Of a stretch of DNA of 64,000 nucleotides, positions 16,520 through 33,671 are shown one piece after another. Source of the stretch: Arenicellales bacterium (GTDB lineage: Bacteria; Pseudomonadota; Gammaproteobacteria; Arenicellales; Poriferihabitantaceae); NCBI GenBank assembly GCA_965231905.1, contig CBDDOO010000002.1, forward strand, positions 714,192 through 778,191. Direction: 5' to 3'. The position numbers and the translations under genes are program-made. The notes below the pieces were generated by a model. It saw only the letters and a list, made by a program, of their open reading frames with translations. It made no database searches and was not told the DNA's origin. The number at the start of each line of letters is the position of its first letter. The stretch's first letter is position 1.

Positions 16520-16810
16520 TCAGGCAAACAAAGACTGGACCTGTAATTGTTCACGACGCTGTTCTGCCTGCCACAAGTCATATTGGCCTTGTTGATTGAT
16601 CCAGCTTTCTGCTGAGGTATTGAAAGCGATGGATAGCCGAACTGCCATTTCCGGGCTGACGCCCGCCCGCCCGTTTACGATTTGACTCAGTGTTTTTCTG
16701 CTCACCCCTAACGCCTCGGCCGCTGATGTGACGGTAAGGTCAAGAGGGTCAAGACAAAGCTCTTTGATAATTTCGCCGGGGTGTGGGGGGTTGTGCATTA
16801 ACATTTTCAC
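16520..16810 (-). CDS. higA: HigA-family (XRE HTH) antitoxin, with no intact toxin partner
   Basis: [54 protein letters not shown] is the typical HigA HTH. Only ~150 nt separate it from the upstream methylase gene. Confidence 0.8.
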
Positions 16811-16962
16811 TCATGTTCATCAACGGAGGGTTCTGGTATGTCTTTCAGTTAACTTGGTCATCTTCTTTCCTCCTGTTATGGGAAGTATAGTGGATGACCA
16901 TTTACACAGTTTTATTTACACCCTCCCTGATTTTCTATCTGGCATCAACACAAATAAAATAT

Positions 16963-17862
16963 TTATCCATCAAACAAAACCAACTGCTCCTGCTGTTTGA
17001 CGTTGGTAGTTGGATACTCACAGTTTGATACTTTATAGTTTGTGACAAGAGCTTCAACCATGGGATTGCGGTTCTGTTCGCTTCCTCCCACATGGTAAAA
17101 ATGCTCACGGGTATAAATGTTGAACTCGTCCCATAGTGATGCTATGTACTCGTTTTTTCTGAAATCGTTGTGATGCCAGGTGGACAAAATGAATCTTGCT
17201 TTTGATAAGCGAAGACTATCAAATAATATCTGCTCATGCTCACCGTCCCAACCGTTGTAATAATCCACATGTCTGTCAATATAAGGCGGATCACAGTAAA
17301 CAACATCGGAGATGGTTGCTTGTTTGATCGTGTCTTCGAATGACTGACACTTGAAGGTAAAGTCTTTCACCTTCAGTAATCGGGATATATGATCCACCTG
17401 ATTCACAATTTTTGTCACATAGGCTTGAGCAAATCTGTTGGGTTTCTTACAGAAAGGAATATTAAGGCCACCCTTTCGATTAAAGCGAATCATCCCGTTA
17501 AACCCCGAACGGTTCAAAAACAAGAAATCAAGCGGGTGGCGCTTTTCGTTAAATCTTTCGCGTAAGGCGTAATAATGTTTGTCGCCTTTCTCCAGCAGCA
17601 ATGAACCTTCTTCATTCAAGTACTTTCGTACAATCTCCGGGGTTATTTCGCCGGTTTTGATTGAGTTGTAGAAGTCAATCAGATGAGGATTGGTATCACA
17701 CATAACAGCACACTTGGGGGCGATATTAAAGCCCACAACACCGGTTCCCATGAAGGGTTCTATCCATTGCCCTTCGAGTACTTCAGGAACAATACTTTTA
17801 ATCCATGGGATCAGTTTGGTCTTTATTCCTTGCGATTTTATGGGGGGTACATTTACTTTCAA
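16963..17862 (-). CDS. N6-adenine DNA methyltransferase, Dam/D12 class, M.EcoRV-like
   Basis: [30 protein letters not shown] (AdoMet site), [22 protein letters not shown] and [19 protein letters not shown] (DPPY) closely track my recollection of M.EcoRV. Confidence 0.85.
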
Positions 17863-17874
17863 TTTTTTACATCC

Positions 17875-18705
17875 TTACGGCGGATGGTTGTTTCGGGGAA
17901 CTACCAGTGATGGGTCGCCATTGCGATATTCAACGAATTCTTTCAGATTTCTAATCTTCCTGGTTCCACCTTTTTTATCTGGAATCGTGATTTTCTCAAA
18001 GTTCATCCAATAATCGTCGAACCATTCTTCTCCCAAACGTGAAAATGTTCCGTGCTCCCCCAGAATATCTTCGATCCGGTTAATACTACCAATGTTGGCT
18101 GTGTTTCCGCTACCACTCTTGTCACTGGCAATTTTCCATTTTTCAGCAACAAAAAACTGAAAGTCCTTAACAACTGATGTTATCGACTTTAATTCATCCA
18201 GTTTGTGGGGCCTGGTTTCGTCTATGGTTGGACTTTCAACGCGGTCATATATGATTCCCAAGCTGAAATGGCCAGTATATGAACCATACGGAAAACGAAT
18301 GTTTTTTGTACTGGCTCTATCCTGAAAATACTTGCCGTGCGAGCCGAGTGTGAATCCGTTACACAGATGCGGCTTATCAGGATTACGGTAGGTTGTCTTG
18401 AAATCCACGGCAAATCTGATTGAATCATTATCAGCTTTCACAAAGGAAATATCCGGGTAGTGATTCTGATGCTCAGCTAAAACAGGTTTATAGCCACACT
18501 TCCGTGAAAACTCCAATATTTTGGGAAATAAATGAATCTCCAAGACTTTTGAGACAATCTTGGTATCCGATGAGATTGTGTAGATGTTTTCAAATACGTC
18601 AATAAATCCCTTCACTGTCCATTGCCCGTCATCGGTACTGATGTACTCCTGAAGGGTTTCAACAAAGTCCTTTAGCTGATCTTCGAATTCCTCCTTGTAT
18701 GTCAT
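17875..18705 (-). CDS. Type II restriction endonuclease, EcoRV family (predicted GATATC)
   Basis: SSDTKIVSKVLE, EHQNHYPDISF, FAVDFKTTY (the D..D-x-K catalytic core), FTLGS, KWKIASDKSGSGNTANIGSI and DDYWMNF align block by block with R.EcoRV as I recall it. It lies 12 nt upstream of the methylase gene. Confidence 0.8.
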   Translation of the reverse strand: MTYKEEFEDQLKDFVETLQEYISTDDGQWTVKGFIDVFENIYTISSDTKIVSKVLEIHLFPKILEFSRKCGYKPVLAEHQNHYPDISFVKADNDSIRFAVDFKTTYRNPDKPHLCNGFTLGSHGKYFQDRASTKNIRFPYGSYTGHFSLGIIYDRVESPTIDETRPHKLDELKSITSVVKDFQFFVAEKWKIASDKSGSGNTANIGSINRIEDILGEHGTFSRLGEEWFDDYWMNFEKITIPDKKGGTRKIRNLKEFVEYRNGDPSLVVPRNNHPP

Positions 18706-18899
18706 CTGGGTCAGCCCAGAGAAATTACGGTTTTTATCGTCATATTTTTATGATGTGTCGATATCGTGTGTGACACTGACCACGAACTCCCCAAAATGTT
18801 CTTGAGATGCTGCCATGACCAACGAATTAGTCCTCCGGGATTCGGGACGGGAGTCGGACGAGTATTGTTAATACTTTTTTGTGCAACGATGACTTCTCT

Positions 18900-19328
18900 T
18901 TAGTAGAAAGATTTGATAATTCCTGTCACCGAATTGGCTATTATTCTGGGCCGATTATTATCTGGCTTCCATGCTTGTTGCTGAAAACATCCACCGGTTG
19001 CAGAATCCCATAATATCATTCGTAAGTTCTTGGTTTTCCGATATGATTCTCTTATGCGTTTTCGTTTCTTCGACAGGAGGCTATATTCTGTCAGAATTAT
19101 TTGTTGATTTGTTATAATCCGTGCTTCTAAAGCATGACGCTCTGTTGTGCTGCCTTTTCCGCCACTTATCCAATACACCGATGACATTTCCATGAAATCG
19201 TATAACCTTCGCTTCAGGTCATCAACACTACGATGATGCAAATGAATTGAGCTTTGGACATAATAATTACCTATCCATCCTATACCGCCGCCCACAACTG
19301 CAGCAATGATCATATAGGGCAGATACAA
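18900..19328 (-). CDS. Hypothetical small membrane protein (one N-terminal TM helix plus a basic helical cytoplasmic domain)
   Basis: MYLPYMIIAAVVGGGIGWIGNYYV is the TM segment. The start is 3 nt after the stop of the upstream STAS-like gene. Confidence 0.6.
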   Translation of the reverse strand: MYLPYMIIAAVVGGGIGWIGNYYVQSSIHLHHRSVDDLKRRLYDFMEMSSVYWISGGKGSTTERHALEARIITNQQIILTEYSLLSKKRKRIRESYRKTKNLRMILWDSATGGCFQQQAWKPDNNRPRIIANSVTGIIKSFY

Positions 19329-19331
19329 GGC

Positions 19332-19676
19332 TTACTTTCCGATGCTTCCAGCACCCTCGATATATTGCCTAGTCAAAGCGATGAAATCCTCTAGCTCTGG
19401 TTCGTTCGTTAATAACTGGAGATGCTCATCAAGGAACACTTTGCTCATACCTTCTACTCGTACCAGACCACCGAAAGCTTCTTCCAGAAACGATGAACCG
19501 AATCCTGCAACCCCATCAAATATAACTTTCAGGACCTTACTATCCTTTAGGGGCGGAACCAAGTGTTCTTCGCGAAACTTTGTCCCATTAAAATCCCCGT
19601 CTTCCAGAAAACGGCCAGCCGGGTACATGGAAAAATCTGTCGCGATGGAAATCGTGATAATTGATTCAGCGCTCAT
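19332..19676 (-). CDS. STAS-like protein (DUF4325-type)
   Basis: YPAGRFLEDGDFNGTKFREEHLVP...VIFDGVAGFGSSFLEEAFGGLV matches the STAS-like DUF4325 pattern as I recall it. The ATG overlaps the upstream GHKL gene by 11 nt. Confidence 0.65.
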   Translation of the reverse strand: MSAESIITISIATDFSMYPAGRFLEDGDFNGTKFREEHLVPPLKDSKVLKVIFDGVAGFGSSFLEEAFGGLVRVEGMSKVFLDEHLQLLTNEPELEDFIALTRQYIEGAGSIGK

Positions 19677-20718
19677 TTTGCAAATTCAGTTTCCACTCAA
19701 TCAGTGTTCCATTCAGGGGACGGTGATGAGATATTTTCTTGTGAATCTTACTACCGTCTGACTTTTTCTTGTAGAGATACTCACCTCTTAAACTTACCAC
19801 ACGATAATGCCCACTACAATTCAATCTATCTAGATATCCGCGTACATCCCTTTGAAGACCATGTCCTCGGTGTGTTTCTTCGCTGCTACTTCTCGATAAA
19901 TCGTGCGCAACTTGAATCAAACCAGCATGATCTCCAGGGAGGAATAATTTAAATTTTTCATAAAAATTGCGCCGCAATGTTTTCGGTATGCCAATTCCCT
20001 GATCATAAATCATGATTGTCACTTCGCGCTTTGTAGAATCATAAGATGCCGACAGCCACCAGTTCTGTAGGTCTCGAAACACCTGATTTTCCTTATAGGC
20101 ATGGTGTGCGACATTTGTCATAGCTTCTGTGATAGCGCCGTAGAGATAGTGTTTGCTTGGTATCTCACCAACAACAGGTTCTAAATCTTTTTTTCGTAGT
20201 AGATAAACGACCCTACCATCAGTTTTCTTTCCAGTTTTAAATTTTATGTATCTGACATTTCTTTCCGTATTCGTTGATTGCATTCCAGACACTTGCAAAA
20301 GCTCGAAAAATCCCATGTCTTTCAGCAAATCTCGCACGTGAGGGTCCCACTCCCCTACATCAACCGATTTGAGATTGGGTTCCCCGGGTTGTTTATTCCA
20401 ACGATCAAGCTCTGCGGCGAGTACTAAAGCAGCTGCTGGAGATAAATTATTAATATTCTTGATATCAATGTATATTCGATAATTTCTTCTCTTTTGACTT
20501 TGCGTGCGAATTTCACTTAGTACCCTGGAGACACCATTGAAGTTTGACCCTAATGAAAAATCTTGTGGGCATGTGATTGTATATGTTGCGGTATCCGTTT
20601 GCGTTTGCGTTTCTGTGCTTTGCCTGTTTCTCTTGTTACTCGGGCCTTTCTCGCGCTTAAATAAATTATAGGTATGTCTTTCATTCCATAATTTCGATTT
20701 TTGCGTCGACTTTTTCAT
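19666..20718 (-). CDS. GHKL (histidine-kinase-like) ATPase of the SpoIIAB/RsbW anti-sigma/serine-kinase type, with an extra N-terminal domain
   Basis: N box AITEAMTNVAHHAY, G1 box MIYDQGIGIP, G2 box THRGHGLQ. The N-terminal segment IDIKNINNLSPAAALVLAAELDRW is reminiscent of a STAS-type element. Confidence 0.7.
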   Translation of the reverse strand: MKKSTQKSKLWNERHTYNLFKREKGPSNKRNRQSTETQTQTDTATYTITCPQDFSLGSNFNGVSRVLSEIRTQSQKRRNYRIYIDIKNINNLSPAAALVLAAELDRWNKQPGEPNLKSVDVGEWDPHVRDLLKDMGFFELLQVSGMQSTNTERNVRYIKFKTGKKTDGRVVYLLRKKDLEPVVGEIPSKHYLYGAITEAMTNVAHHAYKENQVFRDLQNWWLSASYDSTKREVTIMIYDQGIGIPKTLRRNFYEKFKLFLPGDHAGLIQVAHDLSRSSSEETHRGHGLQRDVRGYLDRLNCSGHYRVVSLRGEYLYKKKSDGSKIHKKISHHRPLNGTLIEWKLNLQNER

Positions 20719-20938
20719 CGGATAACTTTGGTGTTTATAACCCGCTTGGCCCGATGCGGATAGAGTTTTTTATCATTCTGATTGTATAGACCTGTTTTTA
20801 TGTAGTGATTGTTCTATATTGATCTGCTCTCACCTTCAGCACAATCCGCTTTTTCCCTAGCTGCGCCAAGAGTTCCAAAAAATCAGTTCATTGCCACTAC
20901 AGTCTATACTCAATGCGTGTCGACCAACTGTTTACACC

Positions 20939-22294
20939 TCACTTCTGCTGTCGCCACTTTCTATATGCGGTCTTCGCAGATGTGGGTACGCTACTTTTAT
21001 CCAATATCTTGACCAATGCACGAAATTGTTCCGCACAATTTTTATGTGTATTGAGCCGGTTTGCGAGTATGCCCTTCTCTTTTGGCAACCCCAACATGAT
21101 CTTTACTTCTCGCGGCGAAAATGATTTCACCATCATACGGTAACTTGGCATTGCCGCATTAGATACCCCATAGGGGTTTCCAACTCCGCATGTGACAACA
21201 GCATCGACAAATACCGGTTGTGCACTTTTGGGTACGCCCGTATCACCAGTTAATTGCACAAGACGTTCCGCAAATGGTGGCTCATTATGGAAATTGTTCC
21301 AACCATTGTGAACGCTCAGTAAGTTTCGACTAGCGGCTGTAATCAAACTATGTAGTTCTACTTCACTTAGGAGCGACATAAGTCCTACAGTTTCGAAAAA
21401 TTGTTGAGATGCTTGATATCGTTTCTCATCACCCTTTGCTCGATAATCTTGATGTCGGTCCAGCAGAAGCGATTGTGTCTTGGGCGAGAACTCGTCTTTG
21501 AAGGATCGACAAATAGATTTCGCGTTTACCCGGGCTTCCTCCCTGGCATCAGGGTCGCAGCATATACCATGCAGCATGCCAAAAATTAATTGCCGTTGTG
21601 TATCAAATGTTCCACGAATTCTATTTTCCCATTCTTCTCGTTGACCCTTTGTGAAGTTTGCCTTATTTAACGCCGTTAGGAGCTTTTTTGTATTTACGCC
21701 CTTTGGGTTTTGTTTACTAGAAAGTGCGTGTTTCTGACACCGGCTTAAAAAATTTATTACCTCATCCTCGTCCACGGTTTCGTCTGAAGGATGTGCCACG
21801 GAATAATTGTTGCGCGTTGCTCGACATTGGTCTAGAAAAAAATAATCTTGGTCAGAAATCAGATTCAAGTTCCGGCATAAATCCAATAACTCAGAGTCCT
21901 TGAGATCTAGCAAGCTTGCTTCGTCGAAAGACTTGTCATCCAAGATCTGTGGAATAACTTCCAGCCCAAACTGCCGCACCTTCTCACGTAGCTCAATAAC
22001 GGCTGCATTCCATATATAATTAATGGCTGAGTCAAAAAGGCCGCTCGCTATCGCAATGCAAGTTTTGACAATTTTGTCGTCACGCAAATGCGGCGGGATT
22101 CGGAAGAGTAAACGCGGCAATTGCGACCATGCATACTCAATTTGGTTACCTGACGCGACAACGTTTCGATTGACTTCCAGGGCCTTGGTCAACTCGTCAA
22201 GCATGTTGCCTGTAATGCTTGAGACCCCCGGCAGATTGACCATCAATTCTGTCGGGGGTACATTACTGGCAACGATATTATTTTTCCGATTCAA
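20939..22294 (-). CDS. Hypothetical 451-aa protein with a putative N-terminal HEPN-like domain
   Basis: CRATRNNYSVAHP fits the HEPN R-x(4-6)-H motif, preceded by the helical segment ASGLFDSAINYIWNAAVIELREKV. The C-terminal ~250 aa is unassigned. Confidence 0.45.
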   Translation of the reverse strand: MNRKNNIVASNVPPTELMVNLPGVSSITGNMLDELTKALEVNRNVVASGNQIEYAWSQLPRLLFRIPPHLRDDKIVKTCIAIASGLFDSAINYIWNAAVIELREKVRQFGLEVIPQILDDKSFDEASLLDLKDSELLDLCRNLNLISDQDYFFLDQCRATRNNYSVAHPSDETVDEDEVINFLSRCQKHALSSKQNPKGVNTKKLLTALNKANFTKGQREEWENRIRGTFDTQRQLIFGMLHGICCDPDAREEARVNAKSICRSFKDEFSPKTQSLLLDRHQDYRAKGDEKRYQASQQFFETVGLMSLLSEVELHSLITAASRNLLSVHNGWNNFHNEPPFAERLVQLTGDTGVPKSAQPVFVDAVVTCGVGNPYGVSNAAMPSYRMMVKSFSPREVKIMLGLPKEKGILANRLNTHKNCAEQFRALVKILDKSSVPTSAKTAYRKWRQQK

Positions 22295-22441
22295 AGAAAA
22301 TAATTCAACCTGATTAGATAGTGATAACCACGGTTCGGTTTTTAAGGATCGCCGAATTATTTCCCTACAAGCCTGTATACATACTCTCCAAGGGAGTTCT
22401 CACCGAATTTTACAGAACGGCATCACCAAGCCAGCCTTCAA

Positions 22442-29989: not shown

Positions 29990-30181
29990 GTTTAAACCTC
30001 TGAATCGGAAAAAAATTGTTTGGTCGGCCCTGAACACCCTGTTCAATATCGTGGATTTCTGGTGTGAATCCCGGAATTGATTGGTACCCGGACCTTGAAA
30101 AAGGCCAGATTATACCAGAACCCGCCAATGATTCTAAAGTAGGGGAACTATAATAGATTAGTTTGTAGTTGACAGGAGATG

Positions 30182-30445
30182 TTAGAGAAATGCTTTAACG
30201 CCTGTCAATGTAATTCCTACAGCAACTCCAATACCTCCAAGCACTCCTCCCAATATCCAAACCTTAAGGTTGGCAATGTCATTTTTTGTTGCTGTGGTGG
30301 TTTTGATCCATGAGATGTCTGTTTCCATACGTGCCATTTTTTCCTCAATTTCACTCAGGCGACGGTTAAGGCCGTCTCCTCCACCGTTACCACCACGGCC
30401 TTTAAGTTTTCTATGGTGATCAGCAAGATGAGTAACTTTATCCAC
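30182..30445 (-). CDS. Hypothetical small tail-anchored membrane protein (coiled-coil plus C-terminal TM; XhlA/holin-like appearance)
   Basis: LSEIEEKMARMETDISWIKTTTATKNDIANLKVWILGGVLGGIGVAVGITLTGV. GTG 30445 overlaps the stop of the upstream small ORF by 8 nt. Confidence 0.45.
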   Translation of the reverse strand: MDKVTHLADHHRKLKGRGGNGGGDGLNRRLSEIEEKMARMETDISWIKTTTATKNDIANLKVWILGGVLGGIGVAVGITLTGVKAFL

Positions 30446-30698
30446 TTTGCTTATCCAACCACTCAACAAGTTGCAGAGACGAAAAACCAGAATAATATTC
30501 AATCTGCACAACAATTCCCGGAGAGCCTTCTTTTTTTATTCCGGCCTTGTCAGAAATCTCTCCCGTTAGCAATTTATCATCCTTGATAAAAGCGACTCGA
30601 TCATCATGGATATGGTGTGATGGAGAAGGCCAATATTCTTTGACGTTATCCCATATTGTTGAATTCTCTGTATCAAGAATCAAAACGTAGAGAGACAT
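30438..30698 (-). CDS. Hypothetical 86-aa cytoplasmic protein
   Basis: ORF in the AT-rich island, co-oriented and overlapping the next small gene. No motif recognised. Confidence 0.4.
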   Translation of the reverse strand: MSLYVLILDTENSTIWDNVKEYWPSPSHHIHDDRVAFIKDDKLLTGEISDKAGIKKEGSPGIVVQIEYYSGFSSLQLVEWLDKQSG

Positions 30699-30857
30699 GT
30701 TTATTTGATGAGTAAGGTGTTATCAGGAGAACATTGGTTGATAGGCTATGGTTCTGGTACTACTTTCAGGGATTATACACATACCATTGCACAAAGAAAG
30801 GCCAGGATTGATTTTGGTCTTGTCTACACACCCTCCCATAAGGACGATGCCTCAAAA

Positions 30858-31619
30858 TTACTTCGATGCAAAAATGGTGACAGCGCGATCAGCCTCATCG
30901 TGTAACAGTTGTTTAAGAACGTCGTCTGGTAGTGCATCCAACAGTATAACTCCACCACGTCGGTTCAGAGCGATCATCCAGCTTCGAAAGGCCTCTCGTT
31001 CAAATAATACTTTCTCATTTTCCCAATGTTTTTTCATTACAGTGTAGATACCACGCAGAAGCCGTTTGTTCATTGATACTGATGGTCTCTCGATCAATGC
31101 CGAACGCACATCTTGTCTATATAACAATATGTCCAAAAATTCTTGCGGATTGTCCGGTTCTATTTTATGTGCAATATTGCCAAGCCACCACAATCGTGAC
31201 AGCCCGTTGTCCCGAATGAGCGCCCTGTTTCCTTGAGCAAAGAAATGGTTATCAACTTGACGTACCGCATCCTTTTCGCTATCCGGGCGACGACTCAGCC
31301 ATCGTTTGGAAACGTACTGTGGGTAGTCAAAGTGGCATAAATAAACCCACATCCGTTCAATGGATGCCTGATGCGGTGTCAAGCTTTGCAACGCCCTGTG
31401 GACAACTAGCGCATTAGAAGCATCTGATTCTGATGGTGATTTTTCATTTATAGTCAATTTGTCCGCGAGCTCTGGCGATTTGATCTTTGATTCTCTGAAC
31501 CCATTAATCAAGGTTACCGGGTGTGATTTCCTCGGTGCGTAATACCAGTCAAGATGATCTCGGATAGTGTGCCGAAGCTCCTCAACTGCGCTACTTGTAC
31601 AGTAACGAAGCTTCATCAC
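30858..31619 (-). CDS. Hypothetical 253-aa protein, fourth gene of the Dcm-GHKL operon
   Basis: The start (GTGATG) overlaps the stop of the upstream gene. Conserved-looking blocks RMWVYLCHFDYPQYVSKRWL and NGLSRLWWLGNIAH. No catalytic motif recognised. Confidence 0.6.
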   Translation of the reverse strand: MMKLRYCTSSAVEELRHTIRDHLDWYYAPRKSHPVTLINGFRESKIKSPELADKLTINEKSPSESDASNALVVHRALQSLTPHQASIERMWVYLCHFDYPQYVSKRWLSRRPDSEKDAVRQVDNHFFAQGNRALIRDNGLSRLWWLGNIAHKIEPDNPQEFLDILLYRQDVRSALIERPSVSMNKRLLRGIYTVMKKHWENEKVLFEREAFRSWMIALNRRGGVILLDALPDDVLKQLLHDEADRAVTIFASK

Positions 31620-32305
31620 AACTTATGCCCCCCCGCATCCACAATCAGGGGCATCTTCAGAAAGGGTAGGTTGAGTATCTTTTGGGCATCAACAAGGCGG
31701 TTGGCGCCTTTGGCGCCAAGATGTTGGCATCCTAAAGATTCAAGACGTTGGTCCAAAGAAGAAAACCATCGATAATTGTTGTACTCGCCGGAGTTTTGAT
31801 CAATTTCATTTAATACTGCGATCAGAGCGGGCAGATATAAGCCGTTCATCAGATATTGACCTTCCGGCTGGTCCGCTATCTGCTCGCGCACTTTCTCGTA
31901 CTGTTGGCCATCGTCATCAGACATAATGATCCAAATATAGTTCTCGGCGAGCTCGTATTCCCAGTGGCCGTTTGGAAGTTCCGGGAGTGTTTTATGTCCA
32001 AAGATTGAGCCCAGTGGTGTTTCATCTGCTGTATCAATCCAGTAGTCTTTTGGGACATCCTCGGCAAGCACCGAACCTGAGTCTATATCAAATGTCATTC
32101 CCGCAAAGTCGGAATGCCATCCGTCTGAATAGAACCCGGATAGTGCTTTCATGCAAATGAGAAACGGTGCAAACTCAACCCGTCCAGCCAGTATACCTGC
32201 GTGAAACGAGTGCTCGATATTTGATTGATCAGACTGAAGCAATTTCCGGTAGTGCGTCTTTGGAGATCTAACCAGCAACACAAACTGTGCCTTGTTCTCT
32301 TTTAA

Positions 32306-33501
32306 GGAATCTCTGATTAATCAGTTTCTATTGTATAATTTTTGTACTTCATACTGACTGGAGATATTTCCGATGCGCCAGAGTACTTTTTCCGAAGCTG
32401 GATTTGACAAATACAAGAAACAGACGCGCAAGGAGCGTTTTCTGGATGAGATGGAGCAAATCATTCCGTGGGTGGAGTTGAATGCAGTCATCGAACCTTT
32501 TTATCCCAAACCGCAAGGGGCAGGCCGCAGGCCGATTGGAATAGACCGGATGTTGCGGATTCACTTTCTGCAACACTGGTTCAGTCTTTCGGACCCGGCT
32601 GCCGAGGAAGCGTTGTACGATTCGTTGTCGATGCGCCGGTTTGTGGGCATAGACCTGGGTCGGGAGCCGGCTCCCGACGAGACCACGATCTGCAAGTTTC
32701 GTCATCTGATGGAGAAGCATAACCTGGGGGAACGATTGTTCGGACTGGTCAATGAATATTTGGGTGAGAACGGACTGAAGGTGAATCGGGGTACGATCGT
32801 GGATGCCAGCATCATCTGCGCACCGAGTTCGACCAAGAACCGGGAGAAGAAACGAGACCCCCAGATGCACTCGACGCGCAAGGGGCAGCAATGGTACTTT
32901 GGTATGAAGGCGCATATCGGTGTGGACAGTCGCAGCAAGCTGATTCATTCGGTGGTGGCTACGCCGGCGAATGTTCATGATTCACAGGTTCTGCCGGAAC
33001 TTCTGCACGGGAAAGAGACCCGTGTATGGGGAGACTCGGCCTATACGGGTCAGAAGGCGGTGATTTCACAGGTAGCGCCGGAGGCGAAGGATTTCACTCA
33101 TTCGAAGGGGACGCGCTACCGCAAATTGACGGAGAAGGAGCGCTTGAAGAATCGAACCAAGTCCCGGATACGGTCGAAGGTGGAACATCAGTTCGGTATT
33201 CTCAAGCGGCAGTTCGGTTTTACCCGGGTTCGTTACCGGGGGCTGGAGAAGAACACGCATCGACTGGTTGTGGCCTGTGCCTTAAGCAATCTGGTGATGG
33301 CGAAGAAAGTACTGTTGAGACAAAGGCGGTTGAAACTGCAGGCTACGTACGCCTGAAAAATGAAAAGAGGGGGAGAATGCTTGTATTTCCCCGCTCCCGC
33401 TCACTGATTCCGGGCCATTCTGTCTTTCAGACCCACTCATATCCCGGATTTACAAAAATGACTACCCAAAATCCCCAAAACTCGTATTGTTCAGACTTTC
33501 C
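32306..33501 (+). mobile_element. IS5-family insertion sequence, 1196 bp, flanked by a 4-bp TTAA target duplication
   Basis: IRL is GGAATCTCTGA... at 32306. The reverse complement of the right end is GGAAAGTCTGA... TTAA occurs at 32302-32305 and 33502-33505. The element is visibly GC-richer than the surrounding island. Confidence 0.85.
32373..33356 (+). CDS. IS5-family DDE transposase (InsH-like)
   Basis: QTRKERFLDEMEQIIPW, IEPFYPK, GRRP, MLRIHFLQHWFSLSD, VDASIICAPSSTKN, RDPQMHSTRKGQQWYFGMKAHIGVD and VEHQFGILKRQFGF track E. coli IS5 InsH. Confidence 0.93.
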   Translation: MRQSTFSEAGFDKYKKQTRKERFLDEMEQIIPWVELNAVIEPFYPKPQGAGRRPIGIDRMLRIHFLQHWFSLSDPAAEEALYDSLSMRRFVGIDLGREPAPDETTICKFRHLMEKHNLGERLFGLVNEYLGENGLKVNRGTIVDASIICAPSSTKNREKKRDPQMHSTRKGQQWYFGMKAHIGVDSRSKLIHSVVATPANVHDSQVLPELLHGKETRVWGDSAYTGQKAVISQVAPEAKDFTHSKGTRYRKLTEKERLKNRTKSRIRSKVEHQFGILKRQFGFTRVRYRGLEKNTHRLVVACALSNLVMAKKVLLRQRRLKLQATYA

Positions 33502-33671
33502 TTAAGAGTTGATTTAGTCCTGGCTCACTCAGTTCAAAACAAGCAATCAATTTAACAGCGGTGCTTCGCTTAATGCGCTTGATCTCAATCTCGACTTCAA
33601 ACTCTGCATTTGGATAGTCATCACCATAGCTTGATGGTCGTAAAACCGGATGTGGCCAAGCCTTGCCAGAA

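Follow-up and report, generated by a model that had tools for sequence, protein, structure and literature searches.

A mobile three-gene cassette joining a GHKL kinase-like ATPase and a DUF4325 protein to a putative membrane effector resembles VapKSC

Introduction

Two described bacterial systems in which a GHKL kinase is paired with a STAS-domain protein are the closest relatives of the locus analysed here (Chambers et al., EMBO J 2026, PMC13373217). In the first, CapK is a kinase of helix-turn-helix (HTH)-STAS-GHKL architecture and CapS is a STAS-winged helix-turn-helix (wHTH) repressor. This pair, whose kinase is activated by DNA damage, lies upstream of cyclic oligonucleotide-based antiphage signalling (CBASS), Bub and other operons and frequently adjoins restriction-modification (R-M) systems; CapK activated by single-stranded DNA (ssDNA) phosphorylates a conserved serine of CapS, and the immune operons are de-repressed. 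In the second, VapKSC, the STAS-GHKL kinase VapK is accompanied by the antitoxin VapS, a 116-residue STAS protein with a C-terminal helix, and by the PIN toxin VapC. Phosphorylation of VapS by VapK was inferred by the authors of that work, the S48E phosphomimic of VapS releases VapC, and the operon confers ~2 logs of protection against phage Bas42. Here we analysed a 64,000-nucleotide stretch of an Arenicellales bacterium genome (contig CBDDOO010000002.1; hereafter the window, to which all positions refer), in which three adjacent genes, g1, g2 and g3, encode a kinase-like ATPase, a DUF4325 STAS-type protein and a small membrane-anchored protein. The trio looks like an undescribed, widespread membrane-effector variant of the VapKSC-like kinase–STAS (K–S) kind, with an unannotated effector family.

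Results

The three genes form one co-conserved unit

The three genes are co-directional, tightly packed open reading frames (ORFs) on the minus strand and make up a cassette of 1.8 kb (Table 1). The overlap between g1 and g2 implies translational coupling; g2 and g3 are separated by a gap of 3 nucleotides (19329-19331), and a GGAAAG stands six nucleotides ahead of the g3 start. This layout had been described in a first-pass annotation made from the letters of the window, and its coordinates were confirmed. Overlapping or abutting junctions recur across 68 related loci.

A protein search with g1 returned 226 relatives, nearly all of them unannotated metagenomic proteins. For a census of loci, genomes were scanned at one per species. 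The 69 loci found, 68 of them complete, span Gamma-, Alpha- and Betaproteobacteria, Nitrospirota, Binatia, Entotheonella, Desulfobacterota, Nitrospinota and Verrucomicrobiota, and a number of them appear to lie in sponge-associated metagenome-assembled genomes (MAGs). A g2 homologue stands directly downstream of g1 in all 68 complete loci. In 67 of these it is followed, with an overlap or at a distance of a few dozen bases, by an ORF of 140-230 residues with an N-terminal hydrophobic helix; the sole exception, locus L002, carries insertion sequence (IS) insertions. Iterative searches with a hidden Markov model (HMM) united the third genes as one family in 66/68 loci. The co-occurrence that the first-pass annotation had anticipated was thus borne out. 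The reverse search gave the same picture: a DUF4325 gene and a gene of 320-485 residues precede three distant g3 homologues at all five contig places where these were looked up.

No other neighbour family recurred in more than ~5 of the 69 neighbourhoods, which held no conserved fourth gene, sigma factor or phosphatase, and neither sigma nor PP2C families were among the commonest neighbour Pfam families of 20 loci. The statement of the first-pass annotation that neither a sigma factor nor a phosphatase is linked to the trio, with rpoH lying outside the island, therefore holds across the census. Collectively, these observations define the three genes as one co-conserved unit whose arrangement is beyond chance.

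Degenerate copies were also found: g1 is truncated by an IS in Acinetobacter, and g3 is disrupted by an IS in L002 and truncated in locus L083. Among these copies none had lost g2 alone, as a toxin–antitoxin (TA) relation between g3 and g2 would predict, the observation being anecdotal. A 471-residue protein of L083 (P0096, L083 6001-7660) was considered as a natural g1-g2 fusion that would speak for a K–S complex, and set aside; a truncated, frameshifted g3-like ORF follows it, and frameshift, decay of the copy or an error of long-read assembly is a more probable origin than genuine fusion.

g1 and g2 are remote relatives of VapK and VapS

g1 carries the three boxes of GHKL proteins (N box ExxxN, G1 DxGxG and G2 GxGL) at the places given in the first-pass annotation, and the residues listed in Table 1 do not vary among 22 homologues (41-84% identity). 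The AlphaFold2 model of g1 has a predicted local distance difference test (pLDDT) score of 79.8 and a predicted template-modelling (pTM) score of 0.78. A Foldseek search with this model gave 82 PDB matches at E<=1e-3, and all 50 of those listed are GHKL ATPase domains; the highest target-normalised template-modelling score, 0.57-0.60, was obtained with SpoIIAB. The model and these matches confirm the Bergerat fold. The Pfam matches to HATPase_c_2 (E 5e-5, 23.7 bits against a gathering score of 27.4) and HATPase_c (23.3 bits against 26.4) fall below the cut-offs, and we regard them as real. The closest sequence matches in NCBIfam and PDB, both weak, were SpoIIAB and RsbW, and among phage protein families g1 matches phrog_3364 (E 6e-44).

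The N-terminal region of ~170 residues that the first-pass annotation singled out as an extra domain is present, but it resolves into a basic helix and a STAS-like domain as in CapK and VapK. In the close subfamily the highly basic helix is conserved as MKKPTxKxRxWNxIHxxxLxRR; it stands where CapK carries its HTH domain. The STAS-like domain ends in a conserved MGFFxLL motif. When the g1 N-domain was compared with the g2 family by hhalign, no similarity emerged (E 0.11 across 10 columns). Its assignment therefore draws only on the predicted α/β pattern and the colinear alignment to VapK, both of which are consistent with a STAS domain.

In g2, the Pfam family DUF4325 was matched with an E-value of 3.3e-11, which exceeds the Pfam cut-off and bears out the pattern noted at first pass; of the two HMM searches foreseen there, the one for DUF4325 in g2 thus came out above its threshold and the one for HATPase_c in g1 below. 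Among 37 sequences of the g2 family, F15, P19, G21, R22, G58, S61, S62, F63, L64, E66, F68 and G70 are invariant. hhalign placed Ser61 on the phospho-acceptor Ser48 of VapS (in 'ASPF'), and by this alignment Ser61 is the predicted phosphorylation site. No DNA-binding domain was detected in g2: no wHTH or HTH family was matched, and the family alignment has no extra domain. A search of PDB with the g2 sequence gave no match, and as a single sequence it did not reach the VapS or CapS structures. g2 also matches positions 337-432 of the 441-residue profile PHROG 5816, which hints at real kinase-DUF4325 fusions in phages.

Profile comparisons relate both proteins to the described K–S systems. VapS is itself a DUF4325 protein (Pfam, E 2.7e-17); the g2 family profile matches it by hhalign with E 0.0022, and a broad g2 HMM does so with E 0.011 over VapS residues 26-92. 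The g1 profile matches CapK with a probability of 90.5% (E 1.4e-6) over the linker and GHKL domain, and VapK with E 0.014, colinear from the STAS region through the kinase; a broad g1 HMM matches VapK residues 22-278 with E 0.006. By these alignments, g1 is a remote, colinear homologue of VapK, and g2 one of VapS.

g3 is a single-pass membrane protein of a large unannotated family

The AlphaFold2 model of g3 (pLDDT 81.3, pTM 0.71) shows a long helix that passes through the membrane and runs on into a four-helix bundle. In 67 family members, the mean number of lysine and arginine residues is 0.8 before the transmembrane helix and 3.8 in the 15 residues after it, and 58 of the 67 have more after the helix than before it. 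This excess places the bundle in the cytoplasm, and the first-pass description of g3 as a single-pass protein with a basic helical cytoplasmic part stands. Y52-W53, L106, T111 and F115 are conserved across the third genes of the loci.

No family in Pfam, NCBIfam, PADLOC or PHROGs matches g3. A Foldseek search of its model against PDB and BFVD returned generic helical bundles only (best E ~0.1), which amounts to no structural match. An exhaustive profile search brought together 823 clusters (at 50% identity) at E<=1e-3 and 273 at E<=1e-10, and the relatives among the 150 clusters listed are all small stand-alone proteins of 107-219 residues. g3 is the presumed effector of the cassette.

On the Novosphingobium plasmid NZ_CP039699.1, a g3-family gene downstream of the STAS-like gene (L075 7260-7790) is absent from the gene table, yet it is in frame and matches the family HMM with E 7e-16. 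Small third genes of the cassette can thus be missed by annotation.

The cassette is horizontally mobile

Copies in which g1 and g2 were confirmed by HMM, with the same architecture, occur on several kinds of mobile element. The trio adjoins Cro/CI genes in Marinobacter phage AS1 and XRE/CII genes in a Pasteurella phage-plasmid, and it lies in a Ralstonia prophage, beside a CI/Cro-type repressor, and in a Helicobacter prophage. It is also found on Vibrio, Novosphingobium, Acinetobacter and Leptospira plasmids and on an integrative element, and some of the plasmid copies adjoin partition and TA genes. The published table of Francisella phage KIRK lists a 293-residue hypothetical protein, a 112-residue DUF4325 protein and a 125-residue transmembrane protein beside CI. 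The cassette is therefore horizontally mobile.

The closest genome, an Arenicellales MAG (L005), encodes trio proteins 80-84% identical to those of the window, is syntenic with it on both sides and carries the trio at the same rpoH–hemE site (L005 7900-15330). Its companions there are a type IV restriction enzyme (GmrSD) and two TA pairs, PIN/DUF7662 and Gp49/HTH_37, in place of the 451-residue gene and the EcoRV/Dam genes of the window (see below). Because the cargo of the two genomes differs while the trio is shared, the site is a variable defence/TA hotspot.

Among 140 ORFs within 4 kb of 20 loci, most are housekeeping genes, and each Pfam family is seen at most four times. Strong PADLOC matches in these neighbourhoods were CBASS cyclases (2), TRIP13, Dsr1 (2), Avs2, MzaE, HEC-06 and Orf5, which corresponds to roughly 5-9 of the 20 loci, an estimate since matches were counted over the pooled set. 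This linkage to defence is comparable to the figure of 36% within 10 kb that has been reported for VapKSC (PMC13373217). In keeping with the defence setting proposed by the first-pass annotation, the trio sits in a variable hotspot in this lineage and occurs in prophage immunity regions and on plasmids, but most neighbours of the homologues are housekeeping genes and the linkage to defence islands is moderate, not general.

The AT-rich island and other genes of the window

The trio lies in an AT-rich island with sharp borders, as had been described at first pass (Table 1). The island is flanked by higA/hemE on one side and by rpoH on the other, the latter 1.7 kb from the trio and outside the island. 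At the island borders we found no integrase, tRNA-type boundary or flanking direct repeats, and a promoter and terminator scan of the island gave counts not above those of shuffled controls.

The first-pass annotation had placed the trio between a type II R-M system and a HEPN-like gene. The R-M system, of EcoRV and Dam type, was confirmed, but the HEPN label of the 451-residue gene found no support: its protein matched nothing in Pfam, PADLOC, NCBIfam or PDB. It matches phrog_27609 (E 5e-42), and tblastn found relatives in 90 plasmid records (25 Escherichia, 13 Klebsiella and 11 Shigella, with others from Clostridium, Streptomyces and Listeria); one of them is a stand-alone gene with rep on one side and IS6 on the other on a Lactococcus dairy plasmid. 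By these matches the protein belongs to a widespread unannotated family and is a candidate single-gene abortive-infection (Abi)-like defence protein. None of the 69 trio loci has a homologue of it, and it is thus not co-conserved with the trio.

A gene for a HigA-family antitoxin (16520-16810, minus strand; TIGR02607, E 3e-32) lies at the island border with host-like guanine-plus-cytosine (GC) content, ~150 nucleotides from the methyltransferase gene. No HigB-like toxin ORF lies upstream of it, and it appears to be an orphan antitoxin or to have lost its toxin. Farther along, a second AT-rich stretch (~30100-38300, GC 0.42-0.50), with several genes that look unrelated to one another (Table 1), may be another R-M or defence islet.

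Table 1 Features of the window, with residue numbers of the encoded proteins.
Feature	Positions	Strand	Details
g1	19666-20718	minus	350 residues; ATG start
g1 basic N-terminal helix	20650-20718	minus	residues 1-23; helix at residues 6-23 in the AlphaFold2 model
g1 STAS-like α/β domain	20299-20586	minus	residues ~45-140; β-α-β-α in the AlphaFold2 model
g1 GHKL ATPase/Ser-kinase domain	19684-20256	minus	residues ~155-345; Bergerat fold
g1 N box AITEAMTNVAHHAY	20095-20136	minus	E198 and N202 invariant
g1 G1 box YDQGIGIP	19984-20007	minus	D239, G241 and G243 invariant
g1 G2 box HRGHGL	19855-19872	minus	R284, G285, G287 and L288 invariant
Overlap of g1 stop and g2 start ATGAGCGCTGA	19666-19676	minus	11 nucleotides
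g2	19332-19676	minus	114 residues; ATG start
g2 DUF4325 pattern FDGVAGFGSSFLEEAFGGLV	within 19332-19676	minus	present as given in the first-pass annotation
g2 Ser61-Ser62	19491-19496	minus	both serines invariant in 37 sequences
g2 C-terminal helix	19347-19415	minus	residues ~88-110
g3	18900-19328	minus	142 residues; TTG start, in-frame ATG 5 codons in
g3 transmembrane helix	19257-19319	minus	residues ~4-24; single, N-terminal, hydrophobic, followed by basic residues
g3 cytoplasmic four-helix bundle	18912-19256	minus	AlphaFold2 model
g3 Y52-W53	19170-19175	minus	conserved in the family
g3 ATGGCF	18984-19001	minus	conserved in the family
AT-rich island	~16811-22440		5.6 kb; GC ~0.42 against ~0.55; sharp borders
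Dam-family N6-adenine methyltransferase	16963-17862	minus	Pfam MethyltransfD12, E 1e-47; PADLOC MTase_II
EcoRV-family restriction endonuclease	17875-18705	minus	downstream of g3; Pfam Endonuc-EcoRV, E 3e-118; PADLOC REase_II
451-residue gene	20939-22294	minus	upstream of g1; in the island
DUF6339 protein	30858-31619		second AT-rich stretch; with an overlapping 221-residue ORF
DDE transposase	32373-33356		second AT-rich stretch
C-5 cytosine methyltransferase	35629-36660		overlapped by a 659-residue protein without a Pfam match
DDE transposase	36862-38253		second AT-rich stretch

Discussion

For the trio itself we established directly the gene architecture and protein folds, the topology, the conserved catalytic and acceptor residues, the co-conservation and mobility of the genes, and the remote homology of g1 and g2 to the K and S proteins. 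On balance we favour, with some reserve, the view that it is a self-contained mobile conflict module of the K–S kind, gated by phosphorylation, in which a membrane protein takes the place of the PIN toxin of VapKSC. By analogy with VapKSC, g2 would, in an unstressed cell, act as the antitoxin, bind the cytoplasmic four-helix bundle of the toxin g3 and hold g3 inactive. A signal of infection or damage, which by analogy with CapK and VapK would be ssDNA, would activate the STAS-GHKL kinase g1; g1 would phosphorylate Ser61 of g2, and phosphorylated g2 would release g3. Free g3 might then oligomerise or otherwise perturb the inner membrane and so bring about arrest or death of the cell, as abortive infection or growth arrest. 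The topology of g3 supports this view, since the bundle shares the cytoplasm with g1 and g2, and the lack of a conserved phosphatase, sigma factor or other fourth gene fits a one-way switch. The first-pass annotation had proposed a partner-switching sensor that gates an effector. Gating by a kinase and a STAS protein has indeed been shown experimentally for VapKSC, but there it works by phosphorylation of a STAS antitoxin that releases the toxin, not by switching of the anti-sigma type.

Several points weigh against this proposal. The toxicity of g3 and its action on the membrane are putative, and with one transmembrane helix and a generic helical bundle g3 is unlike known pore-formers. Binding of g2 to g3 is likewise putative. 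The likeness of g1 and g2 to VapK and VapS is remote (E ~0.002-0.01 against single sequences), and over such a remote alignment the ssDNA-contact residue, W68 in CapK and F54 in VapK, could not be mapped onto g1. None of the three proteins matched PADLOC-DB v2.0.0 (2023) at E<=0.1, and with housekeeping genes in the majority around the homologues, guilt by association is moderate.

In one alternative, g3 is not the effector at all. As a membrane anchor or sensor it could localise or regulate the kinase, for instance by reporting envelope perturbation or DNA injection; the real output would be phosphorylation of other host or phage proteins by g1, and g2 would be a competitive pseudo-substrate or an inhibitor of the kinase. 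A single transmembrane helix on a generic protein-binding four-helix bundle with no features of a pore-former would suit such a role, as would the conserved basic N-terminal helix of g1, and GHKL anti-sigma kinases are known to bind partners besides their STAS substrate, as established for SpoIIAB. We nevertheless consider this arrangement unlikely: in the only relatives to have been characterised, the effector is encoded by the third gene and inhibited by the S protein, the layout of g2, a STAS domain with a C-terminal helix, mirrors that of the antitoxin VapS, and no other effector is co-conserved with the trio.

The phage and prophage copies raise another alternative, namely regulated, non-abortive superinfection exclusion. 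g3 would then keep DNA from entering, like the small membrane-anchored superinfection exclusion (Sie) proteins whose genes adjoin those of prophage repressors, and the kinase and STAS protein would tune its activity. g3 is small and N-terminally anchored, and the trio stands beside CI/Cro-type repressors in Marinobacter phage AS1, the Pasteurella phage-plasmid, the Ralstonia prophage and Francisella phage KIRK. Most copies, however, lie in chromosomes with no recognisable prophage around them, the greater part of g3 is in the cytoplasm and not in the periplasm, and a kinase switch is not known for Sie proteins; exclusion of this kind strikes us as quite improbable.

We would put at the same low level the idea that the trio is purely an addiction or stress-response TA module that stabilises plasmids and islands and has no role in phage defence. 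This idea differs from the phosphorylation-gated conflict module in biological role, not in mechanism. The plasmid copies beside partition and TA genes speak for it, and the authors of the VapKSC work emphasise that TA or stress systems are not sharply divided from defence; against it, VapKSC protects against a phage (PMC13373217), and the trio occurs in prophage immunity regions and a defence hotspot as well.

A classical SpoIIAB/RsbW partner switch that controls a sigma factor, such as that of the neighbouring rpoH gene, or a housekeeping stress regulon would accord with the weak best matches of g1 and with rpoH 1.7 kb away, but it is largely refuted by the neighbourhood census of 69 genomes. 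The place of rpoH outside the AT-rich island and the cassettes on phages and plasmids also speak against it, and we give it hardly any credence. The same very low standing falls to a pair of transcriptional regulators of the CapK/CapS type acting on the R-M genes next to it or on some other immune operon nearby, since, for all the R-M genes directly downstream here, the frequent place of CapKS beside R-M and the best profile match of g1 being CapK, the 114-residue g2 has no wHTH or other DNA-binding domain, g1 has no CapK HTH, and what is conserved downstream is the transmembrane gene and not the R-M system or another operon.

If the conflict module functions as proposed, the DNA-damage-sensing kinase/STAS switch would not be tied to control of transcription, as in CapKS, or to a PIN nuclease, as in VapKSC, but would be a modular sensor able to gate effectors of very different kinds. 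The proposal would also assign a function to a sizeable family of small membrane proteins now annotated as 'hypothetical', and account for the conserved three-gene block that several temperate phages carry beside their repressor genes. A wider generalisation is conceivable, though a shade short of what we would call probable: the kinase–STAS pair would be a general, swappable sensor built on a phospho-gated antitoxin, and the g3 family (at least 273 clusters at 50% identity and E<=1e-10) a second widespread class of effectors that kill or arrest the cell on release, giving prophages, plasmids and chromosomal hotspots Rex-like abortive infection or exclusion across Proteobacteria, Nitrospirota, Campylobacterota and Spirochaetota. 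The cassette is compact and self-contained, and the proposal is therefore easily testable.

The first-pass annotation took the gene combination to be undescribed. This holds for the membrane third component but not for the kinase–STAS pair, which was published in 2026. The literature on DUF4325, on STAS and defence, on VapKSC/CapK and on HATPase_c_2, searched in open-access articles apart from the supplements of other papers, yielded only Chambers et al. and their preprint, together with incidental mentions of a PIN.4 domain coupled to DUF4325 and of the similar trio in Francisella phage KIRK. The word 'transmembrane' does not occur in the text of PMC13373217, and part 1 of 3 of its Dataset EV3 lists VapK/VapS/VapC triplets only.

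Lambda RexA–RexB, encoded beside the prophage repressor, joins a cytoplasmic sensor to a small, polytopic inner-membrane protein presumed to collapse the membrane potential. It is a functional analogy only, with no kinship in sequence or fold; g3 has a single transmembrane helix where RexB is polytopic, and the gating of the trio would be by STAS phosphorylation. With SpoIIAB–SpoIIAA and RsbW–RsbV the trio shares a Bergerat-fold serine kinase with N, G1 and G2 boxes and a STAS partner with a serine at the equivalent helix start, but at the 69 loci it has no linked sigma factor or PP2C phosphatase, g1 carries a STAS-like domain of its own, and the trio is mobile and borne by phages or plasmids.

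CapK–CapS is closer in that the GHKL kinase follows a STAS domain and a GFFxxL linker motif, the gene for the STAS substrate lies directly downstream, and R-M systems are neighbours in both. It differs in the C-terminal wHTH of CapS, absent from g2, and in the N-terminal HTH of CapK, in place of which g1 has a single basic helix. No regulated operon is conserved downstream of the trio beyond g3, and the output of the trio would accordingly be a protein partner rather than a promoter.

The likeness to VapKSC extends further. Both systems consist of three co-directional, packed genes in the order kinase, STAS protein and effector, the last presumed in the trio; VapK and g1 both join STAS and GHKL parts without an HTH, the STAS part of g1 being consistent with such a domain; and the S protein is in each case a DUF4325 protein of ~115 residues that has a C-terminal helix and a conserved serine where STAS helix 2 begins. 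Neither system has a phosphatase, and both have a scattered distribution, partly near defence genes. g1 differs from VapK in its additional basic N-terminal helix. The main difference lies in the third gene, which encodes a PIN nuclease in VapKSC and in none of the 68 related loci (0/68), g3 being a 142-residue single-pass membrane protein with a four-helix bundle. The kinase–STAS core is thus one already described, and what is new in this cassette is its membrane third component.

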